From a virus, in IMG/VR virus record IMGVR_UViG_3300027759_000051: a stretch of 64,000 bases of DNA. One strand, 5' to 3'. The translations under genes were made by a program, and so were the position numbers. Positions 28,008 to 29,298 of this stretch are shown here, piece by piece. Below the pieces are notes generated by a model that worked only from the letters and a program-made list of their open reading frames with translations, was not told where the DNA came from and did not search any database. Numbering within the stretch: position 1 is the first letter of the stretch; every line of letters begins with the position of its first letter.

Positions 28008-28268
28008 TTATTCCTCAATAAAGATGCACTCGCCGGGGCATTCTTCGGCGGCTTCAATAACGCTCTCTAGGAGACTGTCAGGGATGCGCGCAAGACCTTC
28101 AGCCATTGCCGGGTTCGTCTTGCCATCAAAGAGCTTCTCAGCTCCATAGTGCTCCGCGGACTCCTTAACATAGAAAAGGCCGTCGCTTCCACCGAAAAAC
28201 ACATCGGGGGCAATTTCCGCGCATAGGCCATCCCCGGTGCAGAGGTCTTGGTCAATCCATACGCGCAT
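28008..28268 (-). CDS. fdx: Ferredoxin (actinobacterial single-cluster type)
   Basis: 'VWIDQDLCTGDGLCAEIAPDVF...AAEECPGECI'. Confidence 0.9.
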   Translation of the reverse strand: MRVWIDQDLCTGDGLCAEIAPDVFFGGSDGLFYVKESAEHYGAEKLFDGKTNPAMAEGLARIPDSLLESVIEAAEECPGECIFIEE

Positions 28269-28729: not shown

Positions 28730-28745
28730 TGTTCCACGTGGAACA
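28730..28745. promoter_or_regulatory. parS site (TGTTCCACGTGGAACA)
   Basis: Second identical perfect palindrome, between divergent promoters. Confidence 0.8.
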
Positions 28746-28786
28746 TAAAACTCGGTATAGGTTATTCGGGGTGATACAGTTTCAGT

Positions 28787-29020
28787 ATGAAGTAAAGCAA
28801 CCGCTAGCGAGTGGAGAGAAACCCTCTCGCCTAGTTCTTACACGACTCAGAAGTACCGTCGTCCCTTCGGGATAAGGCTCTCACTGCGACACTCCCTCCA
28901 GTTTTCTAGAAACTGCGACAGTCACTCCAATGAACCGTCCTCCTCTGATAAACGAGTCAGGCTGCTGGGGAGAGGACGCTCTCGGTGTGGGAATTGGGCG
29001 AGGGGGTTTTTCTTTACCCC
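28787..29020 (+). ncRNA. Promoter-driven structured non-coding RNA, unknown family
   Basis: Promoter copy 28751-28780; only an ATG-AAG-TAA mini-ORF; 28811-28843 pairs with 28985-29017 (33 bp, 8 G.U, no mismatches); three internal hairpins. Confidence 0.8.
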
Positions 29021-29103
29021 AGTCGGGGCTTACGGTTCGAGTGTCTCGAGCTCTTGGTGGACACGATTTCGGAATAGGTTATACGCCATGATACAGTTTC
29101 AGT

Positions 29104-29298
29104 ATGAGCAAGAAAAAGATTGACCAAGAAGTCCTTATCAGAATCCTCAACATCTTGAACAAAGAAGATGCTGACGTAGAGGCAAGGATTGCAAATAGCA
29201 CACTCCTCGTTTACGGGGAATACGACGGAAGCTACCCTTACCGTATGGGTGCAGCGATTGCTGTTGCCAAGATGGCTCTTGAGTCAGCTTCCGCCTAG
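29104..29298 (+). CDS. Leaderless hypothetical protein
   Basis: TACAGT-N6-ATG. Confidence 0.65.
   Translation: MSKKKIDQEVLIRILNILNKEDADVEARIANSTLLVYGEYDGSYPYRMGAAIAVAKMALESASA

Follow-up and report, generated by a model that had tools for sequence, protein, structure and literature searches.

To our knowledge, few phage non-coding RNAs have known jobs, and most of the large ones, such as GOLLD (RF02032) and ROOL (RF03087), are without a function. These two are phage-encoded, stand-alone and structured, like the RNA presented in this study, and together with OLE they make up the "ornate" self-assembling RNAs (PMC12286853), with which the present RNA shares a palindrome-switching loop signature. 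GOLLD, ROOL and OLE are 600-800 nt or more in length whereas members of the present family measure ~210-290 nt, and there is no sequence or covariance-model similarity between them. Unlike these large RNAs, the present one is closed by a long perfect rod, does not lie near the tRNA genes of its window, and would be expected to give a dimer at most and no cage.

The packaging RNA (pRNA) of phage phi29 (RF00044) is an early-promoter RNA whose ends are paired in a long helix and whose central domain makes intermolecular loop-loop contacts. The present RNA shares the long helix between its 5′ and 3′ ends and, as predicted, the loop-loop contacts and an early promoter. The loops of pRNA are mutually complementary and lead to rings, whereas the present RNA has one consistently self-complementary loop, which would allow dimers only. 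Furthermore, pRNA belongs to small protein-primed podophages, while the phage studied here is ~150 kb in size with relatives that carry direct terminal repeats; the pRNA model does not match the present RNA, which is also missing from most complete related genomes. With 6S RNA (RF00013) and Ms1 the RNA has in common its size, an end-to-end helix and protein sequestration as a likely mode of action, but those RNAs contain an open bubble where the present one has a branched, sequence-conserved core, and neither model matches it. Ms1 occurs in Actinobacteria. Among viruses of eukaryotes, adenovirus VA RNA I/II and the EBERs of EBV are small abundant RNAs whose two ends form a terminal stem, often encoded as adjacent paralogs, that act as decoys for dsRNA-binding host proteins. 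Paralog pairs and a terminal stem are found here as well, and the analogy is a functional one only, since VA RNAs and EBERs are RNA polymerase III transcripts of eukaryotic viruses with no homology to the present RNA and no bacterial dsRNA sensor is implicated here. Lastly, Fremin and colleagues (2023; PMC10690425) reported ~8,500 candidate structured RNAs of 29-151 nt from IMG/VR. That catalogue draws on the same source and holds the same kind of element, namely covariation-supported phage intergenic RNA; compared by length only, its elements of at most 151 nt could include at most a fragment of the present RNA.

The window, by which we mean the whole 64-kb stretch of viral DNA analyzed here, encodes a capsid protein, a primase-helicase, a class II ribonucleotide reductase, an SNF2 helicase, a C5 methylase, a DUF932 protein and a lytic transglycosylase, as well as four tRNAs distant from the RNA locus. 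The neighbors of the RNA are small unknown ORFs, a ferredoxin, the C5 methylase and the SNF2 helicase, and no reverse transcriptase gene of the kind expected for a retron lies beside it. Among cultured phages, those of Arthrobacter carry the nearest relatives of the helicase (32-34% identity); the IMG/VR relatives are 118-170 kb contigs, and direct terminal repeats are present in some of them. The putative host is probably a member of the Actinobacteria, a placement with which leaderless messages and the type of -10 box fit. We are confident that the locus holds a genuine, conserved gene for a structured ncRNA on the plus strand. To the overall explanation, in which this is a stand-alone gene of ~230 nt whose product would be dimeric, trans-acting and protein-binding, we assign a probability of roughly 55%. 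The features on which the argument draws are as follows.

28757-28780, plus strand: promoter cassette copy, a perfect match to the consensus, with the -10 box TACAGT at 28775-28780 and the extended TG at 28772-28773
28787-28795, plus strand: AUG-AAG-UAA mini-frame at the predicted 5′ end, a carry-over of the cassette
28787-29016, plus strand: predicted RNA of ~230 nt, from cassette geometry, fold, covariance-model match and RNA-library contigs
28811-28843, plus strand: 5′ arm of the terminal helix P1, from the helix count, with double changes at 26 of 29 consensus pairs
28846-28850, plus strand: 5′ strand of the second helix, P2, pairing with 28965-28969; 5 of 5 pairs doubly changed among 19 sequences
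28861-28873, plus strand: small hairpin, loop UUC(G), continuing into motif A, found by folding and confined to the subgroup of the window
28871-28881, plus strand: motif A, GAUAAGGCUCU, near-invariant columns
28883-28920, plus strand: 9-nt repeat present twice around the central hairpin, at 28883-28891 and 28912-28920, together with C-rich stretches
28899-28915, plus strand: central hairpin with the tip CUAG at 28906-28909; the stem covaries, with 5 of 5 pairs doubly changed
28935-28946, plus strand: motif B, CCGUCCUC, and a pyrimidine run, near-invariant columns
28945-28960, plus strand: small hairpin, found by folding and confined to the subgroup of the window
28965-28969, plus strand: 3′ strand of P2, pairing with 28846-28850, from consensus and covariation
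28970-28983, plus strand: 3′ hairpin (5 bp, GACG loop) that immediately precedes the 3′ arm of P1; 3 of 5 pairs doubly changed
28985-29017, plus strand: 3′ arm of P1, from the helix count; the variant 29016 A>G still pairs with U28812
29007-29015, plus strand: U-rich tract within the P1 3′ arm, a likely site of intrinsic termination
29017-29028, plus strand: short CCCC/GGGG hairpin of the generic inter-cassette type (AGCCCCG...CGGGGCU), from sequence and fold

The promoter cassette is 24 nt long and has an extended -10 box (TG-N-TACAGT) as its 3′ part. The sequence-only reading had counted about 31 copies; the repeated promoter is real, and our count is 23 copies at up to three mismatches and 29 at up to four. 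The 29 copies span 6465-38045 of the window and lie on both strands. In all except one (28/29), a reading frame of 48-241 aa lies downstream. Of these 28, nine are leaderless, with the ATG 6 nt past the -10 box, and the remainder have a leader of ~30 nt with a GAAAGGG-type ribosome site. The cassette at 28757 is the exception, since only ATG-AAG-TAA follows it, and the original observation that this copy drives no protein is thus borne out. The positions 28773-28790 are identical over 18 bases, extending beyond the -10 box as far as the ATG, to 29090-29107 in the adjacent cassette, which drives a 64-aa frame. Since the mini-frame belongs to this stretch and is absent upstream of the RNA in homologs, we regard it as a by-product of the cassette. 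The identity of the two adjacent cassettes suggests that a recent duplication or gene conversion may have moved the cassette of a protein gene upstream of the RNA. By the geometry of the leaderless cassettes, transcription would start near 28787, and the promoter is presumably of an early class. The covariance-model match at the locus covers 28802-29026 with 181.5 bits. In related phages, this role is filled by repeated promoter motifs that are quite unlike it.

The helix P1 that closes the RNA consists of 33 contiguous base pairs between 28811-28843 and 28985-29017, 25 of them Watson-Crick and eight G.U, without a mismatch; the pair count of the sequence-only reading was exact. When both strands of the 64-kb window were scanned for uninterrupted Watson-Crick and G.U helices of at least 18 pairs with arms no more than 320 nt apart, P1 was the sole helix found, and the minus strand at the same locus does not reach 18 pairs. 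Folding retains P1 in the minimum-free-energy structure (-102 kcal/mol, z = -3.7 relative to shuffles). The inner part of the 3′ arm carries GGGGG followed by UUUUUCUUU, with the nine-base U-rich run at 29007-29015, and a U-run follows P1 in most homolog lineages. A simple terminator scan does not call P1 with its U-run because the 141-nt interior counts as the loop. The inner part of P1 would serve as a terminator stem, with transcription stopping in the U-rich 3′ arm, so that the rod would double as terminator and as protection of the ends. The CCCC/GGGG hairpin at 29017-29028 may be a back-up terminator, and a hairpin of this inter-cassette type also lies 3′ of the RNA in four homologs (L084, L111, L106 and L091).

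These properties could be taken to mean that the locus is a cis element only, that is, a terminator, an insulator or an RNase III site between divergent cassettes with no function in trans. It does lie between two cassettes, its helix ends in a U-run, and a perfect duplex of more than 20 bp is a substrate that RNase III cleaves. We give this reading very little credence, since the locus has a promoter of its own that drives nothing else, the 141-nt interior holds the most conserved sequence of the element, the ordinary terminators of this phage are short GC hairpins, and paralogs are kept in tandem.

Searches by sequence and by motif, and then with a covariance model (R1), recovered ~20 distinct versions of the RNA in ~30 IMG/VR or metagenome contigs from uncultured freshwater phages. 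Each version is preceded by the promoter repeat of its own phage, a repeat that differs between phages, and has a U-run and/or a GC-rich hairpin on its 3′ side. In every version, the terminal helix measures from 16 bp to more than 40 bp and is accompanied by a second, short helix, a central hairpin, a small hairpin before the 3′ arm, and two near-invariant motifs, A and B. Five related contigs, two of which may represent the same phage, carry pairs of paralogs 1.4-3 kb apart, and one of these contigs is a complete 148-kb genome. Diverged paralogs on the same strand include L121/L122 and L114/L115 (contig IMGVR_UViG_3300042373_001362, 126023-126251 and 127657-127881), and further sets are L091 with L243, L137 at two sites, and L146 with L134. 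A pattern search for tandem motif A added one paralog (L243), its four other matches being unrelated repeats, and none of the 74 listed IMG/VR loci with tandem motif B was confirmed, these being chance matches and coding repeats. An exact 21-mer of P1 had no match in IMG/VR. Five of six complete related genomes are without a match at the sensitivity of the model, so that this is an accessory, dispensable gene. A tblastn search of nine window proteins against all RNA-bearing loci found no conserved adjacent protein gene, thus no partner is indicated, and the synteny seen is loose and regional (p65, p103 and the helicase).

The evidence that these RNAs are conserved as structures comes from compensatory change. 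In an alignment of 11 sequences built without structure, 97% of the cells at consensus pairs are paired compared to 82% in shuffles, none of 500 shuffles reaches any of five measures, and slid partners give 44%–59%; the homologs are related, and shuffle figures of this kind overstate independence. A 19-sequence alignment, which was fitted to the model and therefore leans toward structure, has 96% of cells paired compared to 71% in shuffles, and double changes are seen at 51 of 61 pairs (26 of 29 for the terminal helix). Compensatory changes in homologs, which the sequence-only reading had set as a test, are thus abundant. A third subgroup (group C), aligned on its own without the model, keeps the terminal helix with an entirely unrelated sequence, so that the helix persists through complete replacement of its sequence from one subgroup to another. 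The terminal helices of 25 homologs contain 113 G.U compared to 38 A.C, the latter mostly at frayed ends, in an alignment that scores both alike. This excess indicates that the plus strand is the functional one and, together with the minus strand falling short of an 18-pair helix, agrees with the strand originally proposed.

Two further explanations bear on the same data, namely a DNA-level element, such as an origin, a cruciform or a protein-binding palindrome near the parS-like sequence at 28730, and a gene for a small protein. A perfect parS-type palindrome does lie upstream of the cassette, and the RNA of the window is spanned by one open frame. We find this pair of readings scarcely credible. 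A DNA element does not account for G.U pairs on the plus strand only or for helices of unrelated sequence maintained by compensatory changes, and the identity of the palindrome changes between lineages, so there is no conserved operator. As for a protein, no reading frame is conserved across the RNA, since every frame is broken in the close relatives L082, L111 and L106. The open frame in the window (28803-29024, plus strand) runs for 74 codons with no start codon at its head and results from the composition of the arms, which are pyrimidine-rich and G-rich.

The sequence of the RNA also occurs in RNA libraries. Two metatranscriptomes from different studies (freshwater, 2017, and riverine, 2018) each hold one contig without mismatch, covering 28806-28966 and 28842-28985, respectively, with the flanks uncovered. 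The sequence-only reading had named metatranscriptomes as a place to look for this transcript, and the contigs fall on the RNA stretch, although they carry no information on ends or strand and may derive from DNA carry-over, in runs that were found with a 701-nt query. We take them as a hint of expression. In the rest of the 1.8-kb stretch, the sole match is a conserved ferredoxin fragment from other organisms, and the uncovered parts do not imply that flanking genes are silent. That fragment, at 28013-28064 within the ferredoxin gene (28008-28268, minus strand), draws many foreign contigs at high depth in all four runs, which is cross-mapping of the conserved 4Fe-4S motif and not phage expression. 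A close variant from a contig of a DNA run differs by one change in 223 nt of the RNA (29016 A>G) compared to 17 in the following 780 nt. Near-identical DNA is found in lake and freshwater metagenome runs of at least 15 studies.

The 141-nt interior enclosed by P1 is a conserved multi-branched core with at least four covarying helices. In the consensus, 28870-28878 (motif A) pairs with 28937-28943 (motif B), leaving an internal loop of UAA opposite a single C, and the pair that flanks this loop is A-U in 10 sequences and G-C in eight (alignment columns 80/204). Judged from the alignment, the two motifs would meet in each molecule to form this conserved UAA-versus-C loop. Each motif occurs once in the subgroup of the window and twice in most other subgroups, and the hairpin directly before the P1 3′ arm is kept in all of them. 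Among the interior hairpins listed earlier, those at 28861-28873 and 28899-28915 are in place, while CGTCCTC/GAGGACG is not part of the family consensus. That helix is possible in the window; the consensus has instead the 28970-28983 hairpin and the pairing of 28937-28943 with 28870-28878. The 9-nt repeat was found again at 28883 and 28912 with the C-rich stretch at 28890, and flanks of a similar repeat and C-rich type are seen in L082, L111, L114 and L134. The invariant motif pair, the palindromic tip of the central hairpin and the paralog pairs in related phages go beyond the initial reading of the locus.

In Gram-positive bacteria, the C-rich loops of 6C or RsaE-type sRNAs block translation. 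By analogy, the present RNA could be a base-pairing sRNA whose unpaired C/U-rich stretches (motif B and the CUCCCUCC-type flanks) would block the G-rich ribosome sites of host or phage mRNAs. Several of its pyrimidine-rich stretches resemble an anti-Shine-Dalgarno sequence, the ribosome sites of the phage are of the GAAAGGG type with a third of the cassettes being leaderless, and a promoter and terminator of its own are typical of sRNAs. However, what is invariant in motif B is CCGNCC(U)C and not a CCUCC run, and by covariation motif B is paired with motif A inside the molecule. Sites complementary to motifs A and B are not in excess of chance in the 64-kb window, and a 33-bp rod with a dimer signature is foreign to sRNAs that act by seed pairing. 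We therefore consider an sRNA unlikely. A search for rRNA antisense or mimicry, in which 27 members were compared by blastn-short to three rRNA operons, returned scattered matches of 11-14 nt (best E ~0.03), none within the invariant motifs.

The same core bears on the role as an Ms1/6S-like decoy of host RNA polymerase, which was among the candidates named before homologs were available. The long end-to-end helix, a size in the range of ~200-300 nt and a likely host of the Actinobacteria type all speak for it. Yet no Rfam model matches at E up to 10, and the multi-branched core with its invariant paired motifs does not resemble an open bubble that mimics a melted promoter. Moreover, the promoters of the phage look host-sigma-dependent (extended -10), so that blocking the holoenzyme would harm the phage itself. 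In view of the missing model match and of the branched conserved core in place of an open-promoter-like bubble, this candidate has lost most of its appeal and is now very improbable.

More generally, no Rfam family matches the window or 12 homolog loci, either at the gathering score or at E up to 10. This outcome, the lack of a conserved frame and the RNA's own promoter all accord with the original view of an uncharacterized ncRNA. Searches with blastn against 50,697 cultured phage records gave no match. The motif-pair pattern had 92 matches in 185,579 prokaryote genomes, which equals the chance expectation, and none was confirmed by the model; the covariance model found nothing in a sample of 154 genomes (three chosen and 151 of one class). 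We conclude that this is a new RNA family, absent from Rfam, of a known kind, that is, the stand-alone structured phage RNAs of which some are self-assembling.

The tip of the central hairpin is, by eye, self-complementary in every subgroup, and the palindrome differs between subgroups. Its core is CUAG in the window and six other lineages, CCGG in four, CGCG in one and GUAC in one. Adjacent bases at the tip of a hairpin have no possibility of pairing with each other within one chain. Thus, a tip that switches from palindrome to palindrome indicates pairing between two molecules. Kretsch et al. (2025; PMC12286853) made this palindrome-switch argument for OLE and GOLLD, where it was confirmed by cryo-EM. 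When hairpins are called automatically from each minimum-free-energy fold, palindromic tips are found in 11 of 18 central hairpins compared to four of 57 other hairpins (Fisher p = 6e-6, a figure that overstates independence among related homologs). The seven automatic misses are mis-registered folds or off-centre loops in lineages that do carry a palindrome. In 13 lineages, nearest-neighbor energies make the intermolecular duplex 8-21 kcal/mol more favorable than a pair of separate hairpins. The loop that holds the palindrome has only 3-5 nt in several lineages, which is too tight for kissing of the classical type, and the contact there would require the top of the stem to be opened or an extended duplex.

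The tip palindrome would pair with the same tip on a second molecule, giving a symmetric homodimer, and on the strength of the switching palindromes we judge that such a dimer forms with odds slightly better than even. In at least two cases the palindromes of paralogs differ: the two in the 148-kb relative have CGUACG and UCCGGA, and those in another genome CCGCGG and ACUAGU. In L137:9684-9978, L134:6415-6710, L118:406-619, L116 and L126 the loop of the small 3′ hairpin is also self-complementary (AGCU or GCUAGC) and could be a second intermolecular contact; in other lineages this loop is GACG or UCGCU.

An end-to-end helix and an intermolecular loop contact also recall RF00044, and invariant nucleotides in a compact junction would suit a ribozyme or an orphan aptamer, so that the RNA might be catalytic, sense a ligand or act as a phi29-type packaging RNA. 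We regard these options together as quite improbable. Neither ribozyme, riboswitch nor pRNA models match, no downstream gene is under control of the RNA as would be expected for an aptamer, a single self-complementary loop leads to dimers and not to rings, and an RNA missing from five of six related complete genomes is not an essential part of packaging.

Of the functions for a stand-alone dimeric RNA, the one that we put forward, tentatively, is that of a stable trans-acting RNA that may bind a protein as a decoy or scaffold through its loops, its rod or both. The RNA would sequester or scaffold a host or phage protein via the invariant internal loops and the double-stranded rod. This possibility is raised because the invariant sequence sits in paired internal loops, the modules repeat and paralogs exist, and because the rod would shield both ends while there is no cis target and no detectable RNA target. 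Release of the RNA by RNase III and a role as decoy for defense proteins, both suggested at the outset, are plausible. A more specific version, which we offer as speculation and consider doubtful, is a two-copy particle of ~460 nt with kissing palindromes, ~30-bp rods and UAA loops, which would be the smallest self-assembling phage RNA and an early decoy for a host protein that recognizes dsRNA or structured RNA. If this were true, the decoyed protein could be, for example, RNase III or an RNA-sensing defense enzyme, and paralogs with different palindromes would make separate homodimers.

At ~230 nt, the present family is small enough for direct biochemistry and structure work. Its transcription unit is clear and its covariation strong, the predicted dimer can be tested, and paralogs that differ in their palindromes occur naturally. 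The phage has a wide distribution among lakes. If the RNA does sequester a host protein, it would represent a route of takeover or counter-defense in abundant freshwater Actinobacteria, for which phage-host pairs have become culturable only recently (PMC10202952).

The parS-type sequence near the locus is a perfect 16-bp palindrome of the chromosomal kind at 28730-28745, 11-27 bp upstream of the RNA's cassette. In the relative L114, a similar GTTTCACGTGAAAC lies just past the terminator of the RNA, before the next promoter.
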